DNA of 64,000 bases, from NCBI GenBank assembly GCA_017536635.1, contig JAFXHA010000070.1, forward strand, positions 5,826 through 69,825, written 5' to 3'. The stretch comes from Clostridia bacterium. GTDB taxonomy: Bacteria > Bacillota > Clostridia > Oscillospirales > CAG-272. A program made the translations under genes and the position numbers. This document shows, piece by piece, positions 42,299 through 60,602 of this stretch. The notes beneath the pieces were generated by a model. It saw only the letters and a program-made list of their open reading frames with translations. It searched no databases and was not told the origin of the DNA. Within the stretch, counting starts at the first letter, position 1. Each line of letters begins with the position of its first letter.

Positions 42299-42300
42299 GT

Positions 42301-42377
42301 CGGTGCGAGTAATATGACATACTGGAACCTGCACGAAGGGCAGCCTCATTAGAACCTGATGGTAACGTTGCCTGATG
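42301..42377 (-). repeat. tRNA-Leu 3'-half-like repeat, copy 1 (most degenerate)
   Basis: The minus strand reads aacgttaccatcaggttctaatgaggctgcccttcgtgcaggttccagt...actcgcaccg. It matches tRNA-Leu(60517..60602) from the anticodon loop through the T-arm, and it abuts the AraC stop codon. Confidence 0.6.
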
Positions 42378-43184
42378 TTATTTTTTCAATATTTCTTTTT
42401 CCTTGGACGGTGAATATCCCCAAAAAGCTATATAATTACGATAGAACGTGGTATAATCTCCAAATCCGCAACGTTCACAAACCATCGTGGGCTTTTCACC
42501 GTCTCGGATCATTTTTTGCGCTAAAAGAAGTCGCTTTTCCATGATGTATTTCTTCGGTGTCTGATGAAGCTCCTTTTGAAACAGGCGGAAAAGATAGCTT
42601 TCACTTACAAAAAGATGCTCTGCTATCTCGTCTATACCCGTAATAGTGCAAAGATTGTCATTTGTATATTTGAGAGCTTTTGAGATTAAAGGAGATAGAG
42701 TAGTAGTTTTTTTTGAAAGCGAATATGGAAACAAAATGATGTTATAAAACAGCTCGGAGAGCAAATGAGCCAATATTTTTTCAAATGTGTCTATGTCGCT
42801 TTTTTGATAATACAGATCGCATTTGCGAAAGATGCCCTCAATGATATCGTTTCCCGCAAGGTTTATTACCTCCATATCGTTCGGTATAAGTCTTGCGCTT
42901 TCTACGTTATGCTTTTCCGCGTCAAAGAGAATATCATATCGCTCATATCTTGACGGTGCATCGATTTGAATAAAATGGTATTGAAATGGGCGTATTAGAA
43001 TAAGATCGCCTTTTTTTAACTTGTATTTTTTATCCTCTATAACGTGTGTCGCATTGCCGTCCAAAAAGTATATCAATTCATATGTATTGTGCGTGTGCAT
43101 GGAATAAGTGTTACACGGAAGATCCTCGGATACTTCATGCTTGAAAAACATTCGGTCTGTTGTCCATATATAATCGGTTGTCAT
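42378..43184 (-). CDS. AraC family transcriptional regulator
   Basis: 268 aa with a cupin N-terminus and a C-terminal HTH (GFGDYTTFYRNYIAFWGYSPSKE). Confidence 0.85.
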   Translation of the reverse strand: MTTDYIWTTDRMFFKHEVSEDLPCNTYSMHTHNTYELIYFLDGNATHVIEDKKYKLKKGDLILIRPFQYHFIQIDAPSRYERYDILFDAEKHNVESARLIPNDMEVINLAGNDIIEGIFRKCDLYYQKSDIDTFEKILAHLLSELFYNIILFPYSLSKKTTTLSPLISKALKYTNDNLCTITGIDEIAEHLFVSESYLFRLFQKELHQTPKKYIMEKRLLLAQKMIRDGEKPTMVCERCGFGDYTTFYRNYIAFWGYSPSKEKEILKK

Positions 43185-43332
43185 AATATTGCTCCATACT
43201 TTTTATTATTTAGTATTGTATCATATATGTTCAGTTTTTGCAATATAAAAATTCATAATTTGCCATTTACATTTCAAAAAGTTTATTCTATAATAATAAC
43301 AGCAATAAAATATTTGCAAAAGGAGCAGGTTT

Positions 43333-44403
43333 ATGAAAAAGTTAAATGTTGCTATTATAGGACAGGGGAGAAGCGGTAAGGATATTCACGGAAAGTACTA
43401 TCGAAGCACAGATAATCAATATTATAACGTGAAGTACGTGGTTGATGGTGATGAGTATCGCAGAAGTGTATCTGAGAAGATATATCCGAGTTGTAAGACG
43501 TTTGCAAATTATGAAGAATTATTTGCACTTGATGACGTTGATCTTGTAGTGAATGCCACGTATTCCGAAATGCACTATCCCATAACGAAGGATCTTCTTT
43601 TACACGGAAAGAATGTCCTTGTAGAAAAGCCCTTTGGACGCTCACGTTATGAGTGTGATGATCTCATAAAAACGGCTAAGGATAAGGGGGTAGTTCTCGC
43701 GGTATTCCAACAGACCTTTTTAGCTCCGTTTTATCAATTTGTATATGATACGATAAGTTCGGGAAAGCTTGGCGACGTCAAGCAGATAAACATTCGTTAT
43801 AACGGTTTTTCTCGCCGTTGGGATTGGCAGACCTTGCAGAAGAAATGCGCGGGCAGCACCTACAATACAGGCCCTCACCCGATAGGTATGGCTCTTGGAT
43901 TTTTGGATTTTGACAAAGATGCGAGAGTGGTTTACAGTAAGCTTGATACCGCGCTCACAAGCGGAGATGCCGACGACTATGCAAAAATTCTCATCACTGC
44001 GCCCAATAAGCCGTTGATCGACGTTGAAATTTCGGCTATCGACGCATACACCGATTACAATATTAAGGTTCAAGGAAGTAAAGGAACGCTCAAGGCAAAG
44101 CCGTCGGTATATGATATGGTATATATTTGCGACGGCGAGAACCCCGAAAGACCCGTTATTGAGGAATTTCTTAAGGATAACAATGGCAATCCCATTTACT
44201 GCTCGGAAAATCTCATCAAGCATATTGAATCGGAAAAATTCGCTGGTACGGCATTTGATATAGGTACGGCAAAGCTTTACGAACAGCTTTATTTTAAGAT
44301 TACTGAGGGTAGAGATATGACCGTAACACCCGAAATGGCAGCTGATATTATTTCGGTAATTGAGACGGTGCATGCACAGAACCCCTTGCCGTTGAAATAT
44401 TGA
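43333..44403 (+). CDS. Gfo/Idh/MocA family oxidoreductase
   Basis: 356 aa with VAIIGQGRSG and the VLVEKP motif. Confidence 0.8.
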   Translation: MKKLNVAIIGQGRSGKDIHGKYYRSTDNQYYNVKYVVDGDEYRRSVSEKIYPSCKTFANYEELFALDDVDLVVNATYSEMHYPITKDLLLHGKNVLVEKPFGRSRYECDDLIKTAKDKGVVLAVFQQTFLAPFYQFVYDTISSGKLGDVKQINIRYNGFSRRWDWQTLQKKCAGSTYNTGPHPIGMALGFLDFDKDARVVYSKLDTALTSGDADDYAKILITAPNKPLIDVEISAIDAYTDYNIKVQGSKGTLKAKPSVYDMVYICDGENPERPVIEEFLKDNNGNPIYCSENLIKHIESEKFAGTAFDIGTAKLYEQLYFKITEGRDMTVTPEMAADIISVIETVHAQNPLPLKY

Positions 44404-44428
44404 GTTGATACATATGGAGAATATAATT

Positions 44429-45298
44429 ATGAAAAAGATTGCGATACTTGGTTGTGAAAACTCGCATGCAAACGCGTTTTTGAATTTTATAAAAGAAAAA
44501 GAAGAATTTTCAGATGTTGAAGTTGTCGGCGTATACAGCGATGAAAGAGAAGCGGCAGAAAAGCTGAACGACAAATTTGGAGTTCCTGTAATGGACGGTT
44601 ACGCGGATGCCGTCGGAAAGATAGACGGCCTGGTTATCACAGCCCGTCACGGAGACAACCACTATAAATATGCGAAGCCGTATATTGACAGCGGCATTCC
44701 TATGTTTATTGATAAGCCGATCACAATCGACGAAACGGAAGCCGTCGAATTTATGAGACAGCTTCAAGATAAAAAAATTCGTATATCTGGCGGATCTTCC
44801 TTGAAACAGGACGTATTTATTCGTGAGCTGAAGCGGGACGCCGAAAGCAACGCAGACGGCGCTACTCTCGGCGGTTTCGTACGCGCCCCTTATCAGAGTT
44901 CGAACGAATACGGCGGCTTCTATTTCTACGCACAGCACCTTGTTGAGATGGTCTGCGAGATATTTGGCAGATTTCCTATCTCGGTGATAGCTAAGCAAAA
45001 CGGAAATCAGCTTCACGTTCTCTTCCATTATGAAGCTTACGACTGCGTTGGACTCTTCTGTGACAATAATTATCTCTATTATGCCTCACGTATGGCTGAA
45101 AAGGCTTCAAAATCCTTTGTTATTCCCACGACTAACGACTGGTTTTATGAGGAATTCAAGGAATTCTACGAGCTTCTTCAAGGCGGCGAACAAGCTGTAA
45201 AATACGATGAGTTTATTTCACCCGTTTTCATTATGAATGCTATTGAGCGCTCCATTGCAAGCGGCAAGGAAGAGCTTTTGAGAAAGATAGAGCTTTAA
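44429..45298 (+). CDS. Gfo/Idh/MocA-like oxidoreductase
   Basis: Start set at the ATG at 44429 (ggaga 8 nt upstream); the track start is a TTG. Motifs are MKKIAILGCENSHA and MFIDKP. Confidence 0.65.
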   Translation: MKKIAILGCENSHANAFLNFIKEKEEFSDVEVVGVYSDEREAAEKLNDKFGVPVMDGYADAVGKIDGLVITARHGDNHYKYAKPYIDSGIPMFIDKPITIDETEAVEFMRQLQDKKIRISGGSSLKQDVFIRELKRDAESNADGATLGGFVRAPYQSSNEYGGFYFYAQHLVEMVCEIFGRFPISVIAKQNGNQLHVLFHYEAYDCVGLFCDNNYLYYASRMAEKASKSFVIPTTNDWFYEEFKEFYELLQGGEQAVKYDEFISPVFIMNAIERSIASGKEELLRKIEL

Positions 45299-45307
45299 GG
45301 AGAAACT

Positions 45308-46147
45308 ATGAGTAAATTGTTGATTTCCGCCTTTGCCGACGAATACGCCAACTTATTTGAGGAGCAGCTGCAGGCTCTCAGAGGCTTTGGTATAGGGCAT
45401 ATTGAGCTGCGCCACCTCGATGGAAAGAACATTTCACTCCTCGGAGAGAAAGAGGTTAAGAATGCAAAAGCTATGCTTGATGCCTTTGGTATTAAGGCTT
45501 CGGCTATCGGCTCTCCACTCGGAAAGATAAAGCTTGACGGTGATATTAACGCCCATATGGAGACGGCGCGCCGAGTTTTTGAATCGGCAAATATTCTGGA
45601 TGTCAAACTTATTCGTATATTCAGCTTTTACGCGCCCGACGGAAAAGAGATTTCCGATATGAAAGGCGAGGTGCTCGATTCTCTTGAAAAGCTTGTCGTG
45701 CTTGCAAGAAAATATGGGGTCACACTGTGTCATGAAAACGAGGCTAAGATATACGGGGATACTCCACATCGTTGCAAAGAGCTTCTGGAATATTTCGAGG
45801 GAGAGCTTAAATGCGTATTCGATATGGGAAATTTCGTTTTAGAGGGAGTAGACCCATATGCTGCATATGAGTTGCTAAAAGATGATATTGCCTATTTTCA
45901 TATCAAGGACGCGCTCTTTGAGGGAGCTATCGTGCCTGCGGGCAAGGGGGATGCAAAGATACAGGAGATACTCTTGGCGCACAGAGAATATGCAAGCGAA
46001 GACTTCTTCGTGTCGCTTGAACCGCATTTGCAGACCTTTTCGGGACTTAATGCTCTCGTAGGGCGTTCCTATGCAAATCCGTATCAATATGTGGATCAAA
46101 AAGCCGCATTTACCGATGCAGTAACTAAATTTAAGGAGTTGATATGA
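45308..46147 (+). CDS. Sugar phosphate isomerase/epimerase (xylose isomerase-like TIM barrel)
   Basis: 279 aa, same family as 23818..24672 and 24691..25545 (ISAFADEYA...LCHENE...FHIKD...LEPH). Confidence 0.8.
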   Translation: MSKLLISAFADEYANLFEEQLQALRGFGIGHIELRHLDGKNISLLGEKEVKNAKAMLDAFGIKASAIGSPLGKIKLDGDINAHMETARRVFESANILDVKLIRIFSFYAPDGKEISDMKGEVLDSLEKLVVLARKYGVTLCHENEAKIYGDTPHRCKELLEYFEGELKCVFDMGNFVLEGVDPYAAYELLKDDIAYFHIKDALFEGAIVPAGKGDAKIQEILLAHREYASEDFFVSLEPHLQTFSGLNALVGRSYANPYQYVDQKAAFTDAVTKFKELI

Positions 46148-46906
46148 ATGAAGATCTTTACAAAAGATTTTTTGAAAATAAATGTTTATAAAACGAGAAA
46201 GGAAATGGGAGAGGCTGCCGCCAAGGATATCAAATCGTGTATTCTTTCGCTTCTACAAAAAAAGGAAACGATCAATATGATCTTTGCCGCCGCACCGTCG
46301 CAAAACGAGGTGCTGTCAGCTCTTGCAACGGATACGGATATCCCGTGGCATAGAGTTAATGCGTTTCATATGGATGAATATATCGGGCTTCCTGCCGATG
46401 CACCGCAGGGGTTTGGAAACTTTTTAAAGGCTCACATCTTCGGAATTGTCGATTTCAAGAGCGTAAACTATATCGATATTTCCGCAGCCGATGCCGAGAT
46501 CGAATGTGCGCATTACACTGAGCTTTTGAAACGATATCCCACAGATATCGTCGTTATGGGGATAGGAGAGAACGGACATATCGCCTTTAACGATCCGCCC
46601 GTGGCGGATTTCAACGATCCCAAAGCTGTCAAACCGGTAGCGCTTGATGATATCTGCCGTAATCAGCAGGTGAACGACGGTTGCTTCGCTAAGCTCGATG
46701 ACGTACCGAAAACGGCTATCACCTTGACCGTCCCCACGCTTTTCGCGGGAGAATATTTATTCTGTATCGTTCCCGCAAAAACCAAAGCAAACGCGGTTCG
46801 AGCCACGCTTTGCAATGATATCAACGAAAAATGTCCCGCCACTATTTTGCGCCGTCATAAAAATGCCGTTCTTTATCTTGACGGAGACAGCAGCAGTCTT
46901 TTGTAA
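46148..46906 (+). CDS. nagB: Glucosamine-6-phosphate deaminase family protein
   Basis: 252 aa with FHMDEY and GIGENGHIAFNDP motifs. Confidence 0.75.
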   Translation: MKIFTKDFLKINVYKTRKEMGEAAAKDIKSCILSLLQKKETINMIFAAAPSQNEVLSALATDTDIPWHRVNAFHMDEYIGLPADAPQGFGNFLKAHIFGIVDFKSVNYIDISAADAEIECAHYTELLKRYPTDIVVMGIGENGHIAFNDPPVADFNDPKAVKPVALDDICRNQQVNDGCFAKLDDVPKTAITLTVPTLFAGEYLFCIVPAKTKANAVRATLCNDINEKCPATILRRHKNAVLYLDGDSSSLL

Positions 46907-46914
46907 TTTGCACT

Positions 46915-48060
46915 ATGAACAGAATAAAATCCAATAAAATCATACTCGAAGAAGGTCTCTTTGACGGCTACGTTTATTTTGACAACGGAAAAATTACGGA
47001 TGTAACAGCAAACGAATTTCCCGTTTCCGAGGAATACGATATGACAGACTATTACGTCAGTGCAGGCTTTATAGATATCCATACTCACGGCGGCGCCGGC
47101 AACAGATTCGAAGGAAGCGTAGATGAGATAGTAGACGGCTGCAATTTTCATCTGATGCACGGAACGACAACGATATGTCCTACCATATCTGCAGCATCCT
47201 TTGAAAGCATGGCGGATTCGGTGTCCAATATCGAACGTGCTATGAGCGATCCTCGTGTGAAGGGAACTATAATAGGCGCACATATGGAAGGGCCGTATCT
47301 TTCCGAAAGGCAAGCGGGAGCGCAGTGTCCTGAATATATAACTTCGCCTATCGAAAAAGACTACTTGCCGTTTATAGAGAAAAATTCGTCTGCCATCGCG
47401 AGATGGACGTACGCGCCGGAAAACGACATCGGAGATGAATTTGCGAAAGTACTGAAAAAATATGGTATCGTGGCTTCCGCAGGACATACCGACGCGATAT
47501 ATTCGGATATGCTTCATGCTTTTGAAAATGGTTGCCAACTCGTAACGCACCTGTATTCATGTACGTCTACGATCACGCGCGATCACGGATTTCGCCGGCT
47601 TGGCGTAATAGAAACAGCATATCTTCTTGACGATATGTACGTAGAGATAATATGCGATGGAAAGCACCTGCCGCCCGAGCTGATAAAGCTCATATATAAG
47701 ATCAAGGGCGCAGATAAAATAGCCCTTATAACCGACAGCCTTGCCCTTGCGGGAACTGATCAGATACACGGATTTATGCAGGCTACCGAATTTATTATCG
47801 AGGACGGTGTTTGCAAGCTTATGGATAGAAGCGCATTTGCAGGCAGTATAGCTACAGCGGATACATTGGTTCGCGTTGCCGTAAAGGAAGCAGATATACC
47901 GCTTTTAGATGCGGTCAGAATGATCACAGCGACTCCCGCGAAGATCATGAGGCTTTCGAAAAAAGGGAAAATAGCGCGCGATATGGACGCTGATTTCGCT
48001 GTTTTTGATGAAAATATATCAATACAAGCGGTTTTTGCCCGTGGAAAATTGATTAAATAA
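46915..48060 (+). CDS. nagA: N-acetylglucosamine-6-phosphate deacetylase
   Basis: 381 aa with GFIDIHTHGGAG, GAHMEGP, AGHTDA and THLY motifs. Confidence 0.8.
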   Translation: MNRIKSNKIILEEGLFDGYVYFDNGKITDVTANEFPVSEEYDMTDYYVSAGFIDIHTHGGAGNRFEGSVDEIVDGCNFHLMHGTTTICPTISAASFESMADSVSNIERAMSDPRVKGTIIGAHMEGPYLSERQAGAQCPEYITSPIEKDYLPFIEKNSSAIARWTYAPENDIGDEFAKVLKKYGIVASAGHTDAIYSDMLHAFENGCQLVTHLYSCTSTITRDHGFRRLGVIETAYLLDDMYVEIICDGKHLPPELIKLIYKIKGADKIALITDSLALAGTDQIHGFMQATEFIIEDGVCKLMDRSAFAGSIATADTLVRVAVKEADIPLLDAVRMITATPAKIMRLSKKGKIARDMDADFAVFDENISIQAVFARGKLIK

Positions 48061-48131
48061 AAGATATTTAAAGTGGCAGACACGTAACATAAGCTAATGA
48101 ATAGCGATTGCGTGTCTGCCAAGACTTTTTT

Positions 48132-48274
48132 GGTTCAGCGTCTATAACCTCGGTCAAAAAAGAAATAGACAGCAAAAGCTGTCTATCTCTTTTTGGTGCG
48201 GGTAACAGTACTTGAACCTGCACGAAGGGCAGCCTCACCGGAATCTGATGGTAACGTATCCTCGGTGAAAGGTT
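48132..48274 (-). repeat. Composite repeat: T2 fragment + terminator + tRNA-Leu 3'-half copy 2
   Basis: 48132-48160 matches the 5' 30 nt (minus-strand sense) of the T2 element. 48165-48193 is the terminator atagacagc-aaaa-gctgtctat plus T-run. 48194-48274 reads, on the minus strand, cctttcaccgagg...accatcagattccggtgaggctgcccttcgtgcaggttcaagtactgttacccgcacca. Confidence 0.7.
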
Positions 48275-48290
48275 AAAATAAAATCTAATG

Positions 48291-49589
48291 CTACTTTAGT
48301 GCATACATAGCTGCGCCAACTGCGCCGCTGTGCGGACCGAACGTTACGTTTACAGGTACTCCAAATGTCTCTGAAAGCACCTCTCTCCAAACAGGGCTTA
48401 CGGATGGACCTCCGCACATTGTAATACGTTCTATCTTGACCATATCGCCCATACGTGTTTTCAACGCATTTGCAACACCTTCCATAAGTGCGCGTGCAAT
48501 ATTTTGCTTACTGTATGCGGCAAGATCTGGAACTTCCTCCATAGGATTGAAAGAAAGTCCGTCTGCCCCCGAAGGAGCTGCTGCGGAAAGCTCGTCCAAA
48601 AGTACGAATTTGTTATCATCCGCGCTGATATATTTATCCACGATCTCCTTGATACGCTCGCTTGCTCGCGAAAGTGAGCACATAGCGCCCCAAGGTCCCT
48701 CGGGTGTCAGAAAAGGATCGGTTAAAAGTAAATGAGAAACTATCTTATTTCTATCGTTCATAGGGAAGAAGCACACCCAAGACGTACCGCACGAGATCAA
48801 TAGATCCCCCTCTTTTTCAATGTTACAAGCACGTGCGGCTGTGGGATGGTCAAAGGAACCGACATACACGCAAGAGCCTGCGGGAAGACCTGTGTCGGCA
48901 GCCCCATCATCTGTCATTTTGCCAAGCAGATCGCCGCTTTCGAGCAATTTGGGAAGCTTATGCTCTGGAATACCGAGTTTCTCAAGAGCTTCCGTATTCC
49001 ATACACGCTTTTTCTGGTCAAACAATCTGGACGGGGTAGCCGTGGAAACGTCAACGCCCCAAACTCCCGTCATACGATGCAATACGTATTCGGTAGCCAT
49101 ACACACAACGTCTGCACTGTCAAGTATTTCAGGAGCGTGAACTCTCAAATGCGCCAGCTGTGCTGCGGGGAACGAAAGAGAAAATCCCCATCCTGCATAT
49201 TCTCTGACATTCGAAATGAACTCTTCGCCGAACACTGCGTATGCTTCCTCGCTCATAGGGGGAGTGAGCCACGAATAAGCATCTATCAAAGCATTTCCTT
49301 CTTTGTCGCAGAGAACACCGTTACCCGATGCGCTCGCCATAGCTATGCCTCCGAAATCCGCGTCCTTCGGCAGCTTCTTTGCAAGATTCTTCAAGACCGA
49401 GCAAATCGTGCGATAGAAATTTTCCATATTTATGCCCAAATACTCACTGCCATCGGGCAATTTAGCGGGGGCATACGTAAAGTCGGCTGAATCCTTGGCA
49501 ATAACGCCCGTTTCCATTGAAAACAGAACAGCTTTTACCGAGGACGTACCGAGGTCAAGACCAATAGCAAATTTTCCCATAGCGCTCAT
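48291..49589 (-). CDS. FGGY-family carbohydrate kinase (short form)
   Basis: 432 aa with the N-terminal ATPase motif FAIGLDLGTSSVKAVLF and a C-terminal GGPSVSP motif. Confidence 0.75.
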   Translation of the reverse strand: MSAMGKFAIGLDLGTSSVKAVLFSMETGVIAKDSADFTYAPAKLPDGSEYLGINMENFYRTICSVLKNLAKKLPKDADFGGIAMASASGNGVLCDKEGNALIDAYSWLTPPMSEEAYAVFGEEFISNVREYAGWGFSLSFPAAQLAHLRVHAPEILDSADVVCMATEYVLHRMTGVWGVDVSTATPSRLFDQKKRVWNTEALEKLGIPEHKLPKLLESGDLLGKMTDDGAADTGLPAGSCVYVGSFDHPTAARACNIEKEGDLLISCGTSWVCFFPMNDRNKIVSHLLLTDPFLTPEGPWGAMCSLSRASERIKEIVDKYISADDNKFVLLDELSAAAPSGADGLSFNPMEEVPDLAAYSKQNIARALMEGVANALKTRMGDMVKIERITMCGGPSVSPVWREVLSETFGVPVNVTFGPHSGAVGAAMYALK

Positions 49590-50971: not shown

Positions 50972-51041
50972 AATGATCTCTATTCCGCCGCCGAAAAGGC
51001 GGCATAATTATTTATAAAATTCAGAGATGGTGCAAATTAAA

Positions 51042-51536: not shown

Positions 51537-51538
51537 TT

Positions 51539-52243: not shown

Positions 52244-52270
52244 CTTTTTCTCCTTAATTACTATGTGGCA

Positions 52271-53305
52271 TTATTTTACACTGTCGCACAGTTTTTTTGC
52301 GTTGGTGTACATGATCTTTTCAATTTCTGTGTCGGTGAGTTTAAGTTCTGCAGCACTGCGCTTGAAAGCAAGCAGCTGCTCGTAAACCATAATAGAAATT
52401 TGGTCGTTTTCTTCCTCACGCATATGAGCCTGACCTGTTACGTCCCCGTAATAACCCTTGGGAACTACGTTGAAGTAGTTGCCGTTCTCAACGATACGGT
52501 ACATGCGCATTATCGAGATAGGCAGGTCGGTTCCGTACATAAAACGATCCACACCAACCGTCTTTATTCCCTCTGTTATAGCGGGGGTGAACAGATTTGC
52601 CGTGAAATCAAACATCATATTTTTGGTGTTTTTCAATATTTCAAAAGCATTTCCAAAGTCAGCCTCGCTATAAGCGCGTCCAACGTGAGCTACTATCAGC
52701 TTGACATTGGGATACTTTTCTTCAATTTCCATAATCTGAGCGATATTTACGGGGTCGCCGAGACGCTTGTTGCGCGGAATATGGAGCATAACTATCCAAC
52801 CGTTTTTGTTAGCCACCTCTAAATGTGACGGGGGCAAGAAGTCATAAATACGCACCTCATTGGAAGGAATATAAGGTGGACAGTTTGCCAAATAAGGCTT
52901 AAGTCCGATAAATCCACCAGCCTTTACGCGCTCTTCCATAGCATCGGCATCCTCTGAATAGTCGGTACGGTATAACATAGGAAATCCATATTCCTTGTTG
53001 GAATCAATAATGAATTGATTGTTCTCAAACGTGTCTTTGCGAGCCACACCGAACATCAGCGCCTCAAGCTTTCTTCCGGGAAACATAGCATTGTTTATCT
53101 CTAAGAATTTGGCAATGCTCATATCCCTAGTAATATAATTCGTCCATGTAGAGCCGCCGTTATATGAACCGTAATTTTTGAGTTCATCACTGGATATGTG
53201 AACATGCACATCAAATATTTTATCCGGCAGAAAATCCTTGAGCTCACGCTCATAAAGTGCGCGGTCGCACTCTCTGTATTCGAACCCTTTTATTATTTCG
53301 GACAT
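52271..53305 (-). CDS. Amidohydrolase family protein (amidohydrolase-2-like)
   Basis: 344 aa with DVHVHI near the N-terminus, VAHVGR and GTDLP motifs. Confidence 0.65.
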   Translation of the reverse strand: MSEIIKGFEYRECDRALYERELKDFLPDKIFDVHVHISSDELKNYGSYNGGSTWTNYITRDMSIAKFLEINNAMFPGRKLEALMFGVARKDTFENNQFIIDSNKEYGFPMLYRTDYSEDADAMEERVKAGGFIGLKPYLANCPPYIPSNEVRIYDFLPPSHLEVANKNGWIVMLHIPRNKRLGDPVNIAQIMEIEEKYPNVKLIVAHVGRAYSEADFGNAFEILKNTKNMMFDFTANLFTPAITEGIKTVGVDRFMYGTDLPISIMRMYRIVENGNYFNVVPKGYYGDVTGQAHMREEENDQISIMVYEQLLAFKRSAAELKLTDTEIEKIMYTNAKKLCDSVK

Positions 53306-53376
53306 TTTTCTTTACACTCCTTTTCATAATTATATATGTTATAGGTATGCATTCAAACGCCAACAAACCTATAAAT

Positions 53377-54051
53377 TTAAAAATCTTTAATGGTCTTATC
53401 TCCGTAAACGCTCTTCCAATCCTTCTCGAAGCCCGCAACAGCCGCATCGGTCATAGGATGGCTGATAAGCATTTTGAGAATATCAGCGGTAACGGTTACG
53501 CTGTGGCAAGCAACGGACGCACACTTGTGTACCTGCTCGGCATTCTTGAAGCTTGCCGCAAGAACTTTACAGTCCGAGCCGTAATTTTCAAGTTGGCTGA
53601 CGATCTCAGCAACGACCTCACAGCCGTCACCTATGATATTGTCGAGTCTGTTAACGTAAGGGGCGACAAAATCTGCGCCTGCCATTGCGGCCATAAGTGC
53701 TTGGGTGGGTGTGAAAATGGCAGTCATAGTTACGCCGATACCAATCTTTTTCAGCATCATAGTAGCTTTGAGCCCCTCTTCGCCGATCGGGATCTTTACA
53801 AAGAAAGAACCGCCGAGTCTTTCCTGAAGAAGCTTTGCCTCCTCCACTATATCTTCAGCCTTTTCCTTGGTGGTCTGAACGTGGAGCATCTTGTCAGGTC
53901 CTATAATGTTTCTGATCTCCTCAACGAGAGGCCAGAAATCTGTGTTTGCCTTGGCAATAATTGAAGGATTGGTGGTAACACCTGCCAAGGGATAAAATTC
54001 GTTGCAATGCTTTATTGCCGCAAGATCTGCGGTGTCAAGAATATAAATCAT
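53377..54051 (-). CDS. Fructose-6-phosphate aldolase / short transaldolase (TalC/Fsa type)
   Basis: 224 aa, MIYILDTADLAAIK...GVTTNPSII...FVKIP. Confidence 0.8.
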   Translation of the reverse strand: MIYILDTADLAAIKHCNEFYPLAGVTTNPSIIAKANTDFWPLVEEIRNIIGPDKMLHVQTTKEKAEDIVEEAKLLQERLGGSFFVKIPIGEEGLKATMMLKKIGIGVTMTAIFTPTQALMAAMAGADFVAPYVNRLDNIIGDGCEVVAEIVSQLENYGSDCKVLAASFKNAEQVHKCASVACHSVTVTADILKMLISHPMTDAAVAGFEKDWKSVYGDKTIKDF

Positions 54052-54116
54052 ATCAGTAACTTCCTTTATCTGTTTTTTACAATCTCAAAAAAGTAATTTC
54101 AAGGATATCTCGCAAA

Positions 54117-54737
54117 TTAGCGCTGCTGCTGAAGATCGAAGTGGATATCGTACGCCTTTTCCTCTTCAGTAAACTTACGTCTGGTGTCGATTACCTGACC
54201 GTCATTCCACTTTCTGTCGTTAACGTCCTCGGTAGTACCCATAATAGTAACGTTTACCTGACGGTGACGGGCAATAACGTGGTCCCAGTCAATAAAATAG
54301 ATGTGAGCAAAAAGACCGAGGTCGAGCTTGCCGTCTTTGATGGTGAGGGTCTCACTTCTGCCGAAGAAAACAGAACGAAGGTGAGCGTCGGTATTCATCG
54401 AAGAGTAGTCTCCGGGCTCGTTTACGTATCTACCGTACTGAGAGTGGATAGGACCGGGATGACGGTACTGATGCTCCTCTGCAAAATCGGGAATCATCTT
54501 TCTCATAATGTCAAGCAGGTCGTGCTGAAGATACTCAAGGTCAAAAGAGTCTATATCGTGCGAGCATTCCTGAACCATTACAGAGCAAGTGGTGTGGTGA
54601 GAAACGATAGAAACGGTACCGTTCTTGATGCCGGAGTCCTCTACCATTTCAAGTATCTCTTTTCTGATGTCGTGGAAGGTAGGGATCCAACCTCTGGACT
54701 GAAGCTCGAGTTCTTTCTGATAAATTTTGAATTCCAT
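54117..54737 (-). CDS. YjbQ/UPF0047 family protein (second copy, C-terminally extended)
   Basis: 206 aa with SHHTTCSV and NTDAHLRSVFFGRS motifs. Confidence 0.75.
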   Translation of the reverse strand: MEFKIYQKELELQSRGWIPTFHDIRKEILEMVEDSGIKNGTVSIVSHHTTCSVMVQECSHDIDSFDLEYLQHDLLDIMRKMIPDFAEEHQYRHPGPIHSQYGRYVNEPGDYSSMNTDAHLRSVFFGRSETLTIKDGKLDLGLFAHIYFIDWDHVIARHRQVNVTIMGTTEDVNDRKWNDGQVIDTRRKFTEEEKAYDIHFDLQQQR

Positions 54738-54780
54738 AATAAAAATCTCCTTTTGTTTTTATAAAAATTTTTTATTGATT

Positions 54781-55374
54781 TTATTTGTTTAATCTCTCAC
54801 CGACCGCTCCGCCGGGATGAATGAGGGCAAACTGCTCGTTTTTGTAGTCTGTTTCCTCGATAAGCGCGGTTTGAAGCGCGTGGAATATCATACACAGCGC
54901 AGTGGACGAAGTAGTTCCCTGAGAATTGTATTTATCTGTTTCGCGATTTACGTACTGCTTCAGTACCACATCGGCGCCCGTTGCTAAGGGAGACTCAAGA
55001 TTCTCAGTAATGGTGATAACCTTTACGCCTTTTCGCTTACAAATATCGAGAATTGGAAGCAGTTCTTTTGTCTTTCCGCCTCGCGAGGCAAAGACCATAA
55101 CGTCGCCTTCTTGTAAGAATCCCATTCCTCCGTGGACAGCCTCGGCGGGAGAAACGAACTTTGCGGGCTGCTCAATGCAGCACATAAGGTGAGCAAAATG
55201 CTGACAAATAATTCCCGAATGACCGCAACCGCTCGCTCCGATGCGAGGCGCGTTTTTCAAAAGCTCAACAGCCTTGGCAAATGCGTCGTCATCGAGATAA
55301 TCAAGCATCTCCTTGATACACTCGTATTCAATCTCGTATGCCGCTTTAGCGGCAGCCAATGCTTCTTTTTTCAT
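54781..55374 (-). CDS. SIS-domain phosphosugar isomerase
   Basis: Start set at the ATG at 55374 (ggagg upstream). Motifs are GASGCGHSGI and FASRGGKT. Confidence 0.7.
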   Translation of the reverse strand: MKKEALAAAKAAYEIEYECIKEMLDYLDDDAFAKAVELLKNAPRIGASGCGHSGIICQHFAHLMCCIEQPAKFVSPAEAVHGGMGFLQEGDVMVFASRGGKTKELLPILDICKRKGVKVITITENLESPLATGADVVLKQYVNRETDKYNSQGTTSSTALCMIFHALQTALIEETDYKNEQFALIHPGGAVGERLNK

Positions 55375-55612
55375 ATACTCCTCCGCCACCTTAAAAAGAA
55401 GGCTCAATGTCAATTTTTTAAGCTATGATACATTATTGTATCATACAAACTTATACAATCACATTATACAATCACGTTATTTTAATGTCAAGAAAAATTT
55501 TTCTTTAACTTTCGCTTTTTTAAAATGAACAGTAAAACCGAAAGCTGTATTGACAAAAACGAAAGAAAATGGTATATTAAAGTATAATATATGGTATAAG
55601 GAGAAAATTTTT

Positions 55613-56371
55613 ATGAATTCGGAGCAAAGAAAACAAAAAATACTCGACCTTCTTAAAGAAAATGACTCGGTAAGAGTTACCAATCTTTCTCGTATGTTTG
55701 GCGTAAGTGAGGTAACTGTTCGTACCTATCTTGAGGATATGGAAAAAAAGGGGCTTCTCTCTCGTGTACACGGAGGCGCGGTCAGTTCATATAAACCGTA
55801 TTACAGTATGAATCTCAATCAACGCCTTGAAACAAACCAAACGGCAAAGGTTGCTATAGCTGAACGGGTTGCAGAGCTTATTCAACCCAATGATACAGTC
55901 ATGCTCAATTCGGGAACAACTACGCTTCTCGTGTTTCGAAAATTTCCTGCCAACTATAGCCTGAACATCGTTACAAATTCTATATCTATTGCTCTTGAAG
56001 CGTCGGGGAATCCCAACTACAATGTGATTCTCGTTGGAGGATCTGTTAATACAAAGTATCAGTTTACATACGGTAACGACGCAATATGTCAGATAAAAAA
56101 ATATCATGCCGATAAGCTTGTTCTGTCGGTAGACGGTATTTCCGCCGAGCATGGATTCACGACCTATTATGATAAGGAGGCCACCGTGGACGTTGCGATG
56201 ATGGAGCAATCCGAGTGTAGAATTATTGCCGCTGATCACTCTAAATTCGGGCATAGCGCATTTGCAAAGATAAAAGACCTTCAGGCAGTAGATTATATTG
56301 TTACAAACGCACAGCTATCCTCAAATCTTGCCGAAAAGCTAAATGAAAACGGGGTTACGGTATTGTTGTAA
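55613..56371 (+). CDS. DeoR family transcriptional regulator
   Basis: Start set at the ATG at 55613 (RBS aaggaga). It has N-terminal HTH RKQKILDLLKENDSVRVTNLSRMFGVSEVTVRTYLEDMEKKGLL and a DeoR C-terminal sensor domain. Confidence 0.85.
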   Translation: MNSEQRKQKILDLLKENDSVRVTNLSRMFGVSEVTVRTYLEDMEKKGLLSRVHGGAVSSYKPYYSMNLNQRLETNQTAKVAIAERVAELIQPNDTVMLNSGTTTLLVFRKFPANYSLNIVTNSISIALEASGNPNYNVILVGGSVNTKYQFTYGNDAICQIKKYHADKLVLSVDGISAEHGFTTYYDKEATVDVAMMEQSECRIIAADHSKFGHSAFAKIKDLQAVDYIVTNAQLSSNLAEKLNENGVTVLL

Positions 56372-56387
56372 TTCAATCATAGAACAA

Positions 56388-56418
56388 CAAAAAAGAGAGC
56401 CGAAGCTCTCTTTTTTTT
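56388..56418. terminator. Bidirectional terminator aaaagagagc-cgaa-gctctctttttttt (same hairpin recurs at 58769-58796)
   Basis: Perfect 7-bp GC-containing stem flanked by A- and T-runs. Confidence 0.75.
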
Positions 56419-56420
56419 GT

Positions 56421-56501
56421 TGGTGCGGGTAACAGGACTTGAGCCTTCACCGAGGAACCCCGACTAGAACCTGATGGTAACGTTACCTCGGTGAAAGGTT
56501 A
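56421..56501 (-). repeat. tRNA-Leu 3'-half-like repeat, copy 3 (hybrid)
   Basis: The minus strand reads taacctttcaccgaggtaacgttaccatcaggttctag...ctcaagtcctgttacccgcacca. It starts at the stop codon of the 714-aa lipoprotein gene. Confidence 0.65.
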
Positions 56502-58643
56502 GCCTTTTCCGTTGGGATACTCATTACTTTCCCATGATACTTCAAGTGGTGAAAACTCAATCTTTGTCTTGGGATTGTCCTCAAAATATTTCAAAATTTC
56601 TTCCTGTGTTACCTGTTTGCCGTCAATATAATATTCAGCATTCGGCTCTCCATCATTAACAATGCGCCAAAGCTCTTTTGTCCTTAATTCTGCGCCGTCA
56701 AAAGCAAGTTGATCTTCTCCGTATTCAAAGTTAACTCCGGTGTCATTCCAAGAATACGAACCGTCGGTATGCAAATTGTTTATTCCTCTAAATGTAAACG
56801 GATAAACGTAAACGCATCCCTCGTAATAACGCAAAATCAAGGTGTCTCCGCAATCGATCACGAGTTCGTTTATCGAGTCACCGTCAAGATCAACATATGC
56901 GTATCCTAAATTTTCGCATTCGCAAAGAGGAATGCCAGAGTAAGGCGTTGTGTAAGACGCAAGACCACTCAATGTTTGCTCGTACATTTCCATAGTGCGC
57001 TCGCTATCTGTATATTCTCGGCATTCACCCGTAATAGCATCTACAAATAATTCCTTATGTATAATAACGTTCTCCGGCGGTAGACTGTACGGGGGATCGG
57101 GTACGTGATTACGATATCCTTCCCACTGCCAAGAAATACGATATCCCTGTGTATCGCTATTAGGTTTTTCTAATATAACTATTTTGTGTAATATTTGTGT
57201 TCCTGCAGCACCCTCGCTCATTCCGTTTTCAATTTTCCAATAATTTGAAGCAATCTCACAGGCTTTTTCCGAAGATATCGGGTACTCACACGAAATATCA
57301 AGTGGAGAGAAGATCACTAATGTTCCGGATTTATGATAATCCAAAAATTCTTCTCTCGTGATCTGCTTGCCATCTACGTAAAATTCAAGGTTTTCATAAA
57401 AATCGAAGGGAGTTATATGTTTTATTCTGTATATTTCTTTGATATTTAGCGATTCTCCGTCAAATGTGATCTGATTTAATCCGTGAGTCCAATTTTCAGA
57501 TTCATAAGAATCACTCCAATAAAAAGAGCCGTCGGCATTTAAATTGTAGAAATTATTCTTATCAAAGCAATAGCTGAAAACCTTTCCGCCATAGTAGTGT
57601 AAAACGATATGATCTTTGTCGGGCGATTGAATAACGTACTCGTTGATCCCGTCCCCATCCAAATCCAGAATGGCTTTCGTAAGTAATTTACACTCATCTA
57701 TCCTTGCATTATTGCTTGGAAAGCGGCAGGCTTTCAGCTTGATCTCGCCCAAATGTTCATCAATAACGCAGATTTTATCATTGATCGCCGCTTCGTACAT
57801 TTCCATAGCGATCTCTGCTTCGGTATAAAGAGAAGTGAATGTCAGCTTGGCAGATACCATGGTTATATTACCCGCCTCGTCTGCATTGATAGGATTTCCG
57901 TATTGACGATCAAGCTCGGCTACTTCTTGTTCGGTAATGAAAACGGTGTTGTCATGGATGGTTTGGTATAATTTTCCGACAATCACTCCATTTTCTCTGA
58001 AAATATCATAGCCGTATGTACAAAGCTCAATCAAATGTCCGTTGGAAATCTCGAAAATGCTGTGATGATAAAGGTCGAGACCATCCGTCCTTACAACATG
58101 AATACGCCCCTCGGCATCAATCCAGTTTCGGAACGACCACCCCAAATCCCTCTTGATATAGCTTCCCAATAACGTGGGGATATCATTGATTAAAGAGTAT
58201 ACAGCGATGATCCTATACTCATCGGTTAGCAACACAAGCTCGTCCACGCCGTCACCGTTGAGGTCCTTTATGGCATATCCACATCCAAGCTTATAGTGTG
58301 GGGATAGACTATCCTCTTGCTCTCTGCTGGGATAAAATTGGTGGATCGAGGAATATAGCCTCAAAAATGATTCCTTTTCGCCCTCATCTTGAATACCAAG
58401 CTCAAATGCCAACGCTCTAGGATTTTGGTTTACAATAGGAATTTTCTCTACAATAAGACGGTATATTTCCAATACGGAGTCATAATTTGCACTTTTGGAA
58501 TTATTTGAAACATTATTTGAGATGTTTTCTGTAATTTCATTTTGATCTTGTTTGTTTGTATCTTGACTTATGTTTTCTTTACCGCAGGAAAATAATGATA
58601 ATATCATAATCAAGCAAAGCAAAAAAGCGATGTATTTTTTCAT
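56499..58643 (-). CDS. Large lipoprotein with internal duplication and DxDGD(G/S)xxE Ca-binding-like loops
   Basis: 714 aa with lipobox LFSCGKE and three D-L-(N/D)-G-D-(G/S) loops. Two modules of about 170 aa are homologous (EIAMEMYEAAIN... versus RTMEMYEQTLSG...). A TTGACA-17-TATACT promoter lies upstream. Confidence 0.7.
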   Translation of the reverse strand: MKKYIAFLLCLIMILSLFSCGKENISQDTNKQDQNEITENISNNVSNNSKSANYDSVLEIYRLIVEKIPIVNQNPRALAFELGIQDEGEKESFLRLYSSIHQFYPSREQEDSLSPHYKLGCGYAIKDLNGDGVDELVLLTDEYRIIAVYSLINDIPTLLGSYIKRDLGWSFRNWIDAEGRIHVVRTDGLDLYHHSIFEISNGHLIELCTYGYDIFRENGVIVGKLYQTIHDNTVFITEQEVAELDRQYGNPINADEAGNITMVSAKLTFTSLYTEAEIAMEMYEAAINDKICVIDEHLGEIKLKACRFPSNNARIDECKLLTKAILDLDGDGINEYVIQSPDKDHIVLHYYGGKVFSYCFDKNNFYNLNADGSFYWSDSYESENWTHGLNQITFDGESLNIKEIYRIKHITPFDFYENLEFYVDGKQITREEFLDYHKSGTLVIFSPLDISCEYPISSEKACEIASNYWKIENGMSEGAAGTQILHKIVILEKPNSDTQGYRISWQWEGYRNHVPDPPYSLPPENVIIHKELFVDAITGECREYTDSERTMEMYEQTLSGLASYTTPYSGIPLCECENLGYAYVDLDGDSINELVIDCGDTLILRYYEGCVYVYPFTFRGINNLHTDGSYSWNDTGVNFEYGEDQLAFDGAELRTKELWRIVNDGEPNAEYYIDGKQVTQEEILKYFEDNPKTKIEFSPLEVSWESNEYPNGKG

Positions 58644-58798
58644 TTATAATCTCCAAATTTATATTGATAAAACAAGTATAGCATACGCTAAAAAGTGTGT
58701 CAATAAGGTGGGGAAAAGATTTTTTAGAAGGCACTTTTTGACGAGAAAGTGGTGTAAAAAAACTAAAACAAAAAGAGAGCCGAAGCTCTCTTTTTTGT

Positions 58799-59063
58799 TG
58801 GTGCGGGTAACAGGACTTGCGAACCTCGCTTTGCGCCGGCGTATATTTGTTGATGAAAATAATTTGTGCGCAAAGCAATCCAACTCTGCGAGTTGGAGAG
58901 GTTCAGCGTCTATAAACTCGATCAAAAAATAAATAGACGGCAAAAGCCGTCTATCTCTTTTTGGTGCGGGTAACAGGACTTGAACCTGCACCTCCTTGCA
59001 AAGACTAGAACCTGATGGTTGTGTCACTTTAGCGACACGTCATCATACTCGGTGAAAGGTTTA
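58799..59063 (-). repeat. Composite repeat block: T2 element (58799-58923) + terminator (58933-58962) + tRNA-Leu 3'-half copy 4 (58962-59063)
   Basis: The first roughly 190 bp of this block (58799 to about 58990) appears about 95% identical by eye to the corresponding part of 60354-60602. The two diverge at the variable arm and anticodon loop. Confidence 0.75.
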
Positions 59064-59228
59064 GTCTTTTCCGTCGGGATATTTGCTTACTGAGATCTCT
59101 CCCGTTTCAATATTTACCGAAGTAATTTCAAGATGCTCGTGATAGCTATTGATTGCCGCCTCATACATTTCCATAGCGATCTCGGACTCTGTAATATGTG
59201 TATCGGTGGTATCGTTTGCGCGATCCTT
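59061..59228 (-). pseudogene. Remnant of a paralog of the 714-aa lipoprotein gene (internal + C-terminal fragment, no start)
   Basis: The minus-strand frame reads KDRANDTTDTHITESEIAMEMYEAAINSYHEHLEITSVNIETGEISVSKYPDGKD*. Compare EAEIAMEMYEAAINDK... and the C-terminal ...EYPNGKG* of 56499..58643. An upstream in-frame TAG is present, and no ATG with an RBS. Confidence 0.65.
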
Positions 59229-59302
59229 CTAAATCTAGTCAGAAGGGGGATTCTCGTTTTGTGACGGAGCATAGGTGGAAAAAACGGTGTGTTACAATAT
59301 CA

Positions 59303-60151
59303 TTAAAGTTTTTCAAAAAAAGCCCTGGTTTTCCCGTAAAGATCAAAGGAATGCCACGCGATGGCAATGTTTTCATTGTAATTTATATAAAGACATTGCC
59401 CCCTCATTCCGCCTTTTGCATAGCCTTTTCCTTTTTTACTGAATTCATAACCGCGATCCAGTACAAGGTCGATCCATTCTTGTGATAGGATTCTTTCTCC
59501 GTTCCATAAGCCGTTATTCAAATAAATACGCCCAAGCTTTACTACGTCCTCTGTGCGCAAATAAAGTCCGGTTGCTCCAACAGGATAGTTTTTAGGGCAT
59601 TTTGACCACGCAACTTCACGACAGCATATTTTATTAAAAAGACGATCCATAAGAAACTCATCAAGCTTCTCACCGCATATTTTGGTTACAATACGGGAAA
59701 TAAGATAGTATGCGGCATCCGAATAAACCCTGATCGTTCCCGGATCATACGTTAACTCGTGGTCAAGTACAATAAATAGAAAATCATCCGTAGGGTAGGT
59801 TGTAATGTCTTCTGTGTCAATATCGAGAAAGCCTTTGGAAAAGCCAATTTCATGACGCAAAACATGATCGATCGTAACATGTTCCCATTTTTTTTGAGGA
59901 ATTCCATACTGCTTTAGCTCATCAGCAAAAATATCCGCGATCGTTGTATTTGTTGAGAGCTTCTTTTCGTCAAAAAGCATTCCAATTGCCGTTACGCAGA
60001 AAACCTTGGCGACTGAATAACAGTTTTGGCAAGGATTTGCCGGTATTCTTTCAAGAGTCTCGATTCCTTTTTCTGTAGAAACACTAAAACAGTATGTATT
60101 TATATCATCTTTTTGGGCAATATTATTAAGCTTTGTCAGTATATCTAACAT
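59303..60151 (-). CDS. Serine hydrolase (class-C beta-lactamase/PBP-like family)
   Basis: Start set at the ATG at 60151 (ggaga upstream). S-x-x-K motif is in CYSVAKVF, and a YSDAAY motif follows. Confidence 0.65.
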   Translation of the reverse strand: MLDILTKLNNIAQKDDINTYCFSVSTEKGIETLERIPANPCQNCYSVAKVFCVTAIGMLFDEKKLSTNTTIADIFADELKQYGIPQKKWEHVTIDHVLRHEIGFSKGFLDIDTEDITTYPTDDFLFIVLDHELTYDPGTIRVYSDAAYYLISRIVTKICGEKLDEFLMDRLFNKICCREVAWSKCPKNYPVGATGLYLRTEDVVKLGRIYLNNGLWNGERILSQEWIDLVLDRGYEFSKKGKGYAKGGMRGQCLYINYNENIAIAWHSFDLYGKTRAFFEKL

Positions 60152-60353
60152 TTTTTCTCCAATCAAGTAAGTGTGATTATTGTATCGATGTGGCAGAGAT
60201 GCTTTTTATCATTTATAGTATAGCATAAAAGAAAGGAAAAAGCAAGGGAAATGCGCAAACATTGCCTGCTACCAACTTCTTGCGTTGGGAAATTTCTGCG
60301 AGCCGATCACTCAGACCAAAACAATAGGGACGGCTTTGTCGTCCCTATTGTTT

Positions 60354-60516
60354 TGGTGCGGGTAACAGGATTTGCGAACCTCGCTTTGCGCCGGCGTATA
60401 TTTGTTGATAAAAATAATTTGTGCGCAAAGCAATCCAACTCTGCGAGTTGGAGAGGTTCAGCGTCTATAAGCTCGGTCAAAAAAGAAATAGACAGCAAAA
60501 GCCGTCTATCTCTTTT
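60354..60516 (-). repeat. T2 element (60354-60478) + terminator (60488-60516) immediately 3' of tRNA-Leu
   Basis: Near-identical to 58799-58962. The T2 3' end (minus strand) ...ggttcgcaaatcctgttacccgcacca repeats the last 17 nt of the tRNA including CCA. Confidence 0.75.
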
Positions 60517-60602
60517 TGGTGCGGGTAACAGGACTTGAACCTGCACGAAGTTGCCTCACTAGAACCTGAATCTAGCGCGTCTGCCAATTCCGCCATACCC
60601 GC
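60517..60602 (-). tRNA. tRNA-Leu (anticodon CAG), CCA-encoded
   Basis: The 86-nt minus-strand sequence folds by hand into a class-II cloverleaf. It has acceptor stem gcgggta/tacccgc, a 3-bp D stem, anticodon stem ctaga/tctag with loop ttCAGgt, a 14-nt variable arm, T arm gcagg-ttcaagt-cctgt and a final ACCA. Confidence 0.9.

Follow-up and report, generated by a model that had tools for sequence, protein, structure and literature searches.

Gene cassettes without recombinase genes behind a tRNA-Leu gene of gut Clostridia: probable serial insertion by an enzyme acting in trans

The 64-kb stretch of DNA analyzed here (the window; contig JAFXHA010000070.1), which comes from an uncultured ruminant-gut Clostridia bacterium, carries an intact tRNA-Leu(CAG) gene followed by an 18-kb array of gene cassettes that are delimited by copies of the 3' half of this tRNA. 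We consider it probable that this array was formed by the serial insertion of integrase-less cassettes by a site-specific recombinase acting in trans, with homologous exchange and decay overlaid. A broader reading is more tentative, namely, that gut Oscillospirales may possess a tRNA-anchored, integron-like capture platform. The anticodon loop would be its insertion point, a conserved arm of about 25 nt together with the tRNA 3' half would be the cassette site, and an unlinked recombinase would insert, excise, and reorder promoter- and terminator-insulated cassettes that are exchanged between species. The data show the architecture, the modularity, the movement of units from genome to genome, the position of the junction, and the lack of recombinase genes, whereas a circular intermediate, the kind of recombinase, and its action in trans are inferences. 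That the units are modular and transferable is much better established than what kind of enzyme moves them.

The tRNA-Leu anchor and the displaced copies of its 3' half

The anchor (60517-60602, minus strand; Rfam tRNA, 54.5 bits) is the sole tRNA gene that ARAGORN and Rfam identified in the window. Its 3' half from U33 onward (60569-60517) is the portion repeated downstream, where four copies on the same strand each span the sequence from U33, in the anticodon loop, to the encoded CCA. Copy A (59015-58962) has the variable arm CTTTGCAAGGAGG. Copy B (56474-56421) has the variable arm CGGGGTTCCTCGG and is followed by a terminator at 56389-56416, whereas copy C (48248-48194) combines the variable arm GAGGCTGCCCTTCG with A37 and has, downstream, a terminator and the initial 65 nt of the mini-module described below. 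Copy D (42359-42301) is the most decayed; with its terminator (42297-42266), which it shares with the convergent pfk gene (41017-42258), it occupies 42266-42359 and probably represents the original chromosomal 3' half and terminator. The variable arms of the array fall into four types. Two truncated 3' halves complete the set, each consisting of the T-loop end, acceptor strand, and CCA: the degenerate T2 (60354-60381, minus; nhmmer model positions 54-79, E 0.012), at the left end of the Ser-hydrolase cassette, and T2' (58799-58826, minus; nhmmer E 0.002), which forms the left end of the 714-aa lipoprotein cassette and has a terminator behind it at 58770-58795.

The initial annotation had recorded four same-strand partial copies, and their positions and strand were reproduced, but the number of tRNA-derived pieces downstream of the gene is six, since T2 and T2' have to be counted. 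It had also reported a lost T-stem strand in one copy and a degenerate acceptor end in copy A. This distribution of damage had to be revised: copy A is complete, copy B has a hybrid T stem (GAAGG/CCTGT) and not a lost strand, T-stem mismatches are present in copies B and C, and the degenerate T arm and acceptor are those of copy D.

The similarity to the tRNA is, statistically, highly significant. A junction 20-mer (up to 3 mismatches) and a T-arm/acceptor 30-mer each had 4 matches in the window, compared to 0 in 100 shuffles. A profile trained solely on elements from other genomes and then run over the window recovered copies A to D with E values of 1e-12 to 1e-24. The same profile matched the tRNA-Leu gene only from model position 26, which corresponds to the junction (60569-60517, E 1e-14), in line with the earlier proposal that the copies start within the anticodon loop. 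Beyond these matches, T2, and T2', no further match was detected in the 64 kb.

In front of each full copy lies a non-tRNA arm of about 25 nt that is conserved, has the consensus ACCTTTCACCGAGGTGACGTTACCA (in pattern form, TTTCACCGAGGTGACGTTACCATCAGG), and starts 0 to 20 nt past a minus-strand stop codon. The arm of copy A is a variant with an insertion of about 30 nt (59061-59016). The non-tRNA flank that had initially been described as shared, ACCTTTCACCGAGG, has 3 matches, all at junctions and on the correct strand. Likewise, the claimed order of stop codon, copy, and terminator was found for all of copies A to D; terminator-like hairpins, strong and mostly bidirectional, lie 3' of the four copies and of T2'. 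Part of this architecture is contained in a 205-nt direct repeat (58787-58991 and 60342-60546, 95% identical) that comprises the 3'-half end, terminator, about 100 nt, and T2. Within this repeat, the tRNA is followed by a cargo-less mini-module (60382-60516, minus) consisting of a bidirectional terminator and about 100 nt with the hairpin TCCAACTCGCAGAGTTGGA, an arrangement that also follows the tRNA in the comparison loci L081 and L023. A second cargo-less mini-module is located at 58827-58961 (minus), with a terminator at 58931-58956 and again about 100 nt.

The array is flanked by the genes for homoserine dehydrogenase and the convergent phosphofructokinase. Its genes are distinct in composition from the remainder of the window, with a mean GC content at third codon positions of 0.456, as compared to 0.565 for the other window genes (Mann-Whitney p = 1e-5), so that the composition check suggested initially did not return a native-like profile.

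Occurrence of the arm and half-tRNA in other genomes

An exact-pattern scan for ACGTTACCATCAGRTTC was made over one genome per prokaryotic species, and the comparison loci are referred to by L-numbers. According to our own arithmetic, 17 fixed positions over 6e11 bases are expected to give about 100 chance matches. The scan returned 88 loci, of which about half are unrelated matches in other phyla. The entire element (arm, 3' half, CCA, and terminator) is present in 41 of the 88, all of them from gut Clostridia, Eubacteriales, Oscillospiraceae, or Ruminococcus, and these 41 loci also possess the rest of the arm, CCTTTCACCGAGGTG, which was absent from the query pattern. The exact 17-mer requirement means that divergent arms were missed and that, with ACGTTACCA fixed, variation and tests at those positions are biased. 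Overall, 49 elements and 14 adjacent tRNAs were counted; several loci have two or three elements, and 12 of the 41 have an intact tRNA-Leu(CAG) gene 0.9 to 2.7 kb upstream on the same strand. Arm and half-tRNA together make up a conserved site that is widespread and not the private scar of one genome. A relaxed-pattern scan of metagenomes added just 3 short contigs.

Twenty complete units of 0.9 to 5.4 kb could be delimited in other genomes, 17 of which consist of a single gene, and the genes of the small units (1 to 3 genes) are co-oriented with the tRNA. The cargo includes members of a lipoprotein family, Fic/DOC together with a SWIM protein, an Mrr-nSTAND3 NTPase, an M48-like membrane protein, a YitT membrane protein, XRE regulators, and sugar genes. 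The arm itself shows scattered substitutions and is conserved as primary sequence, and no covariation was detected between arm and variable arm (permutation p = 0.55), as would be expected of a protein-binding site.

A number of further tRNA-related features were noted in these loci. A second class of partial tRNA-Leu copies contains only (A)GTCCTGTTACCCGCACCA, corresponding to the T-loop end, acceptor strand, and CCA, and is preceded by partly related sequence. Apart from the two window sites at 60354-60381 and 58799-58826, it occurs in L081 (~268), L028 (~2216), L104 (~7308), L019, L038, L091, L034, and L069, suggesting either that junctions of a second type lie in the T loop or that these copies are 3' halves in decay. 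A hairpin-rich insert of about 80 to 100 nt interrupts the T loop of displaced 3' halves in L091 (~3760-3860 and ~5310-5410) and also in L019, L038, and L104. It has inverted ends (AAGTTTG...CAAACTT), is placed between GGTTCAAG and TCCTG with AAG repeated, and looks like a miniature inverted-repeat transposable element-like sequence. About 10 of 60 units have a degenerate inverted copy of the tRNA T arm and acceptor past the terminator, for example, CAGGACTTGAACC (window 60434-60452 and 58879-58897; L064, L028, L069, L044, and L053); given this frequency, it was rejected as a defining feature. Finally, about 170 nt 5' of the tRNA gene (window 60603-60770) is 89.5% identical to L091 2625-2793 although the neighboring genes differ; the tRNA-Leu gene may travel with its own leader and promoter.

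Exchange of cassettes between genomes

Cassettes are common to different genomes at 85 to 100% identity, in unrelated contexts and at differing array positions. Homology between L034 and L069 (98.1% over 1005 nt) is confined to the cassette in a whole-locus comparison, as is that between L030 and L047 (88.6% over 2550 nt), and a unit shared by L041 and L078 (85% over 2038 nt) is the first after the tRNA in one locus and internal in the other. In at least 8 pairs, cargo and arm are 97 to 100% identical and are then followed by unrelated variable arms and downstream DNA. The switch of partner falls exactly at the loop in 8 of about 12 cargo-sharing pairs, and near-identity between genomes ends exactly at CCA/TCAGGT.

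The Ser-hydrolase unit of the window (60381-58962) is an example. It is 98% identical to L039 up to CCATCAGGT, where near-identity halts and an unrelated variable arm follows; the alignment is perfect through ...CAACCATCAGGT, after which the variable arms differ (CTTTGCAAGGAG versus GAGGTTACCTCC) and the sequences are unrelated. The left edge of the homology, as seen with L039, L104, L106, and L110, lies inside the preceding 3' half, at T2. The hydrolase of 282 aa occurs in identical form on 12 contigs, in 5 neighborhoods or more, and the cassette is 98 to 99.5% identical in L039, L103, L104, L106, L108, and L110, whose contexts differ.

The cassette polymorphism at the repeats of related genomes that the initial annotation had asked for was observed in three forms. 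In genomes of the RGIG2028 type (L103 and L104), the hydrolase is the third unit of an array at another chromosomal locus, in the order tRNA, two lipoprotein units, hydrolase, YitT, and XRE. L106 has DeoR and AraC cassettes that share 98% identity with those of the window, and its Ser-hydrolase unit is inserted exactly at the junction that corresponds to window copy C (L106 1-2170 equals window 50410-48241, L106 2170-3649 equals window 60374-58900, and L106 3536-6859 equals window 48247-44922). In L108, the 714-aa lipoprotein unit is absent, and T2' is joined directly to the DeoR unit. The DeoR cassette is 95 to 98% identical in L036 and L106, and a homologous AraC cassette end with an intact arm is present in L031. 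Taken together, repeated island accretion at one tRNA, as put forward initially, is supported, and none of the checks of alignment statistics, composition, and polymorphism spoke against it.

Two details of the joints and one of the cargo may be added. The tRNA 3' half contains CAGGTTC twice, in the anticodon loop/stem (60568-60562) and in the T stem/loop (60544-60538), and the left joint of L106, CCATCAGA/TTCAAGTCC (2159-2190), equals a deletion between these two copies. The right joint (3530-3560) has a 6-nt duplication, TCAGG-TCCAGG-TTC. The gene for the AraA-like isomerase (window 49586-50971) is precisely absent from L036, which is otherwise 95 to 97% identical.

Absence of recombinase genes from cassettes and loci

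A scan of 37 window proteins, those of the array included, gave no recombinase domain (no Phage_integrase, PF00589). The lack of an integrase remarked on in the initial annotation therefore stands, and it extends to the 41 loci and to all 24 complete cassettes, none of which carries a recombinase or mobility gene or a fragment of one. Among 229 open reading frames (ORFs) around the elements, no candidate had the HxxR..Y catalytic motif of tyrosine recombinases, and no recombinase is encoded by the called genes of L103 to L111, which include the 12- to 13-kb loci L103 and L104. A recurrent neighbor gene as a hidden recombinase was also considered and rejected, as clustering of the 229 ORFs revealed only the lipoprotein family. 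No cognate integrase-bearing integrative and conjugative element (ICE) or integrative and mobilizable element (IME) with a matching att site was found in the 41 loci, in viral-contig scans, or in BLAST searches of phages and plasmids, although these searches did not extend to the complete genomes of the hosts. An IntI-type integrase is not known for the present system. Given that no unit, locus, or tested window gene encodes a recombinase, the enzyme would have to act in trans.

The only recombinase trace around the elements consists of large-serine-recombinase fragments at inconsistent places: a C-terminal fragment (Zn_ribbon_recom) in L041 (52-780, plus), convergent and just past the last array element, and a related 117-aa fragment in L062 (4104-4457, minus), upstream of the element.

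Proposed mechanism and alternatives

The mobile unit would consist, in this order, of the tRNA 3' half (U33 to CCA), a terminator, usually a promoter, the cargo, and the arm. In a circular form, the arm would be joined to the 3' half, creating an attP-like site, and the unit would be inserted when this site recombines with the tRNA gene's anticodon loop or with any junction already in place. The 3' half of the incoming unit would then complete the tRNA, and the previous 3' half would be shifted downstream. Repeated insertion would build up an array in which the oldest and most decayed copy (D) lies farthest from the tRNA. We infer that either the host or an unlinked helper element provides the enzyme in trans; analogy to known integrations at tRNA genes makes a simple tyrosine recombinase the most likely candidate. 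In addition, cassettes would be shuffled, deleted, and homogenized through homologous recombination and gene conversion among the repeats of 50 to 200 nt.

Several observations are consistent with this mechanism. As the unit extends from a 3' half to the next arm and brings along its own 3' half and terminator, the duplicated downstream flank, which had initially been seen as conflicting with serial integration, fits it. Single arrays hold up to four unrelated variable-arm types, which argues that the 3' halves come with cassettes from different donors; for the same reason, a 54-nt target-site duplication in place of element-borne 3' halves was rejected. The copies degrade from A to D with distance from the tRNA, and copy D and its arm are the most decayed, as fits insertion at the tRNA end.

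The best-surviving alternative holds that there is no dedicated recombinase and that related DNA integrates, excises, and is shuffled by RecA through crossovers in repeated blocks, namely, arm plus loop (37 nt), T arm/acceptor/CCA (30 nt), and the terminators, the arm being conserved by descent from one ancestral unit. We consider this unlikely, for reasons that lie in the junctions. A tRNA target without an arm offers only its 3' half as homology, yet the displaced copy deviates from the tRNA 3' half as early as position 12 in L069, L084, and the window, so that the crossover has to lie inside the 12-nt loop/stem core TCAGGTTCTAGT, which is too short for RecA. The exact switch at the loop in most cargo-sharing pairs also speaks against RecA alone, and descent alone is hard to credit for a near-invariant 25-nt arm that adjoins unrelated cargo in 41 loci while the variable arms diverge freely.

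A number of findings nevertheless count against a dedicated trans-acting enzyme, and several of them, the lack of any recombinase gene included, favor the RecA alternative. Some breakpoints lie between the variable arm and the CCA or downstream flank (window tRNA versus copy A, the internal pair of L040, and L050/L084), where RecA alone could have produced them. The indel of the 714-aa cassette has direct repeats of about 50 nt at its borders, which RecA could equally have used, and three window copies contribute to the mosaic that forms the right joint of L106. For 6 of the 13 first-position cassettes (for example, L023, L034, L052, L067, and L081), the tRNA 3' half is identical to the displaced copy, though lineage specific, indicating active gene conversion; serial insertion by a trans-acting enzyme needs gene conversion between repeats or the spread of units within a lineage to account for these. 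The arm has only weak similarity to the left half-site of the tRNA (CGyTA), and the classical symmetry of a core site is not evident. No recombinase, helper element, or circular form was seen in the material analyzed, so that the enzyme in trans follows by elimination. Three scans of viral contigs contained no arm-carrying element, and BLAST searches of phages and plasmids gave only generic T-arm matches, on which grounds a phage or plasmid origin was rejected. Lastly, all comparative sequences are metagenome-assembled genomes (MAGs) or metagenome contigs, whose assembly can be broken or mis-joined by repeats such as that of 205 nt; this concern is countered by the recurrence of the same arrangements in independent samples. 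Relatives with 76 to 89% identical homoserine dehydrogenase (L006 to L011) have neither tRNA-Leu nor elements beside hom, and thus no empty-site comparison was obtained.

It is rather improbable, although compatible with insertion in trans, that the arm plus 3' half is a functional tRNA-like RNA, selected as a stabilizer or processing signal in the 3' untranslated region of cassette mRNAs or as a small RNA that might, for instance, act as a decoy of tRNA-targeting enzymes; its repetition would then be owed to this role and not to recombination. Such a role would agree with the uniform orientation of the single-gene cassettes, in which the element is always transcribed as the 3' end, with the CCA that is kept in most copies, and with a canonical sigma-70 promoter (TTGAyt-17-TATGCTATACT) about 25 nt 5' of the arm in 7 loci (L040, L041, L074, L076, L078, L071, and L077), which would yield an RNA of about 110 nt with its own terminator. 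The leader behind this promoter, however, resembles the last ~15 nt of the lipoprotein gene, which suggests an internally deleted cassette and not an RNA gene. In the minimum-free-energy fold, a 5' segment is able to pair with the acceptor strand in three of the 7 loci, but the pairing registers vary and the pairing is absent from cassettes that follow a gene, so acceptor-like pairing of the upstream segment was rejected as a general feature. A hairpin between the arm and the 3' strand of the variable arm was rejected as well, since it is perfect only for the CGGGGTTCCTCGG type and there is no covariation; palindromes in the arm would need loops of 0 to 2 nt and are no RNA hairpins. Rfam matches only the real tRNA and returns nothing for the partial copies even at E <= 1, and the distal copies decay. 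Nor would a tRNA-like RNA account for the joining of one and the same cargo, precisely at U33, to 3' halves that differ.

Least probable of all is that the units are remnants of full-size prophages, ICEs, or IMEs that have since been pared down to a few genes, with loss of their integrase: there is ample documentation of tandem islands that leave displaced tRNA fragments, and of degenerate remnants (PMC4383910; 10.1101/2020.12.28.424599), and the serine-recombinase fragment just past the L041 array could be such a trace, but 0 of 24 complete cassettes has a mobility gene or fragment, many units are single genes of about 0.9 kb, no phage or plasmid record has the arm, and the recurrence of integrase-less cassettes at 98 to 100% identity in other genomes and positions argues that they move in this form.

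Relation to known systems and significance

The anticodon loop is a recognized crossover sublocation in tRNA-gene islands (PMC4383910; Williams 2002, cited there). The tandem islands of the Islander collection (PMC4383910) resemble the array in that the intact tRNA is regenerated by element-borne sequence, same-strand 3' fragments mark the borders, the crossover lies in the anticodon loop, a second class of fragments stems from the T-loop region, and serial insertion displaces older units. The window array thus has an intact tRNA, fragments in the same orientation, and blocks that start at the anticodon loop or T loop, as Islander demands, and lacks the integrase (PF00589) that each island has to carry by definition, which is found neither in the array nor in any of the 24 units. 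Further differences are that only 4 tandems of three or more were reported among 3919 islands, whereas the arrays here have 4 to 6 junctions, that units are as small as 0.9 kb or one gene, and that the 25-nt arm is conserved across 41 loci. The islands of Prochlorococcus tycheposons (10.1101/2020.12.28.424599) likewise show serial integrations beside a tRNA, with partial tRNAs in between, remnants, and cargo for nutrient use and defense. Tycheposons, however, encode a tyrosine recombinase themselves, and their remnants include fragmented integrases; phylum, target tRNA, and arm differ as well.

To judge from sequence organization, the closest counterparts are clusters of attC sites without an integron-integrase (CALINs), Xer dif modules, and cis-mobilizable elements (CIMEs); site, anchor, and host group differ from all three. 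CALINs (PMC4889954 and PMC11389934) consist mostly of single-gene, co-oriented cassettes without an adjacent recombinase, are presumed to be mobilized in trans, and vary in order between genomes. The attC site of CALINs is a structured palindrome, whereas the site here, as judged from architecture and without an attC covariance model, consists of direct copies of the tRNA 3' half and an arm conserved in sequence. Moreover, the integron platform is an attI site with the Pc promoter, in contrast to the tRNA gene and the cassettes with own promoters and terminators in clostridial hosts. The Xer dif modules of Acinetobacter plasmids and of IMEX (PMC6449649 and PMC13141974) also consist of gene modules between short sites, have no recombinase of their own but depend on a host enzyme, and are extensively shuffled in order. 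Their sites alternate in orientation and are plasmid borne, whereas all repeats here are direct, chromosomal, and tRNA anchored, and, as judged by eye, the sites are not dif-like. The CIMEs of streptococci (PMC5704250) are similarly flanked by att sites, occur in tandem at one site, and, like the units here, are devoid of recombination and transfer genes. Their definition, however, refers to a cognate ICE that provides the integrase and inserts alongside them, and the 41 loci and the phage and plasmid collections yielded no partner of this kind. No description of the arm or of a tRNA-Leu cassette system was found in the searchable literature, the coverage of which is incomplete.

If a dedicated recombinase does act in trans, abundant gut Clostridia that are hard to culture would possess a system of cassette capture that falls outside the integron paradigm. 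Such a system would account for the passage of single accessory genes between species in the absence of a linked mobility gene; the cargo observed includes variable lipoproteins, Fic and STAND-NTPase defense genes, and carbohydrate clusters. Programs like Islander and the integron finders are built to look for an integrase or attC sites and therefore overlook these units. With a site as compact as this (about 80 bp) and a precise junction, the recombinase could be tested directly and might be of use for site-specific insertion. Even if homologous recombination were to account for the arrays, these are a clear and widespread hotspot architecture, and partial tRNA genes in MAGs can mark active exchange and not dead scars.

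Cassette contents and other features of the window

The four window cassettes, all on the minus strand, have their own strong promoters and terminators, and two of them are multigene clusters. The body of the Ser-hydrolase cassette (59016-60353) comprises a terminator (60315-60357), a promoter region, the gene for a 282-aa serine hydrolase of the beta-lactamase fold (59303-60151; Pfam Beta-lactamase), a lipoprotein-gene remnant (~59064-59200) that is 46% identical to the 714-aa protein (E 2e-6), and the variant arm. The lipoprotein cassette (56475-58798) has a promoter TTGACA-17-TATACT (58703-58675), the gene for the 714-aa protein (56499-58643), in which no Pfam domain was found, and a canonical 26-nt arm (56500-56475). 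The promoter type TTGAyt-17-TATGCTATACT seen 5' of the arm in other loci also drives the hydrolase and lipoprotein genes of the window. This lipoprotein family is the commonest cargo, with 18 members in 15 element loci that are occasionally in tandem (L035); its members have 225 to 714 aa, a conserved signal peptide with lipobox (MKKYIAxLLCLxMxLSLxSC), and the C terminus IPYxxxGKG directly before the stop codon.

According to Pfam, the DeoR sugar-catabolism cassette (48249-56420) encodes DeoR, SIS, two UPF0047 proteins, transaldolase, amidohydrolase, TIM, an AraA-like isomerase, and an FGGY kinase, and it ends in an arm at 48274-48249. The AraC/GlcNAc cassette (42360-48193) is composed of a divergent operon (two GFO/IDH genes, a xylose-isomerase-like gene, nagB, and nagA; Pfam) and the AraC gene (42378-43184), with a degenerate arm at 42380-42360.

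Outside the array, a T-box leader (20297-20527, minus; 123 bits) precedes the aspartyl-tRNA synthetase gene (18428-20218). On the plus strand, 34781-39277 encodes a secreted protein of 1498 aa with many CxxC/CDxCG repeats and repeated modules of about 250 aa, which is followed by three small secreted proteins.

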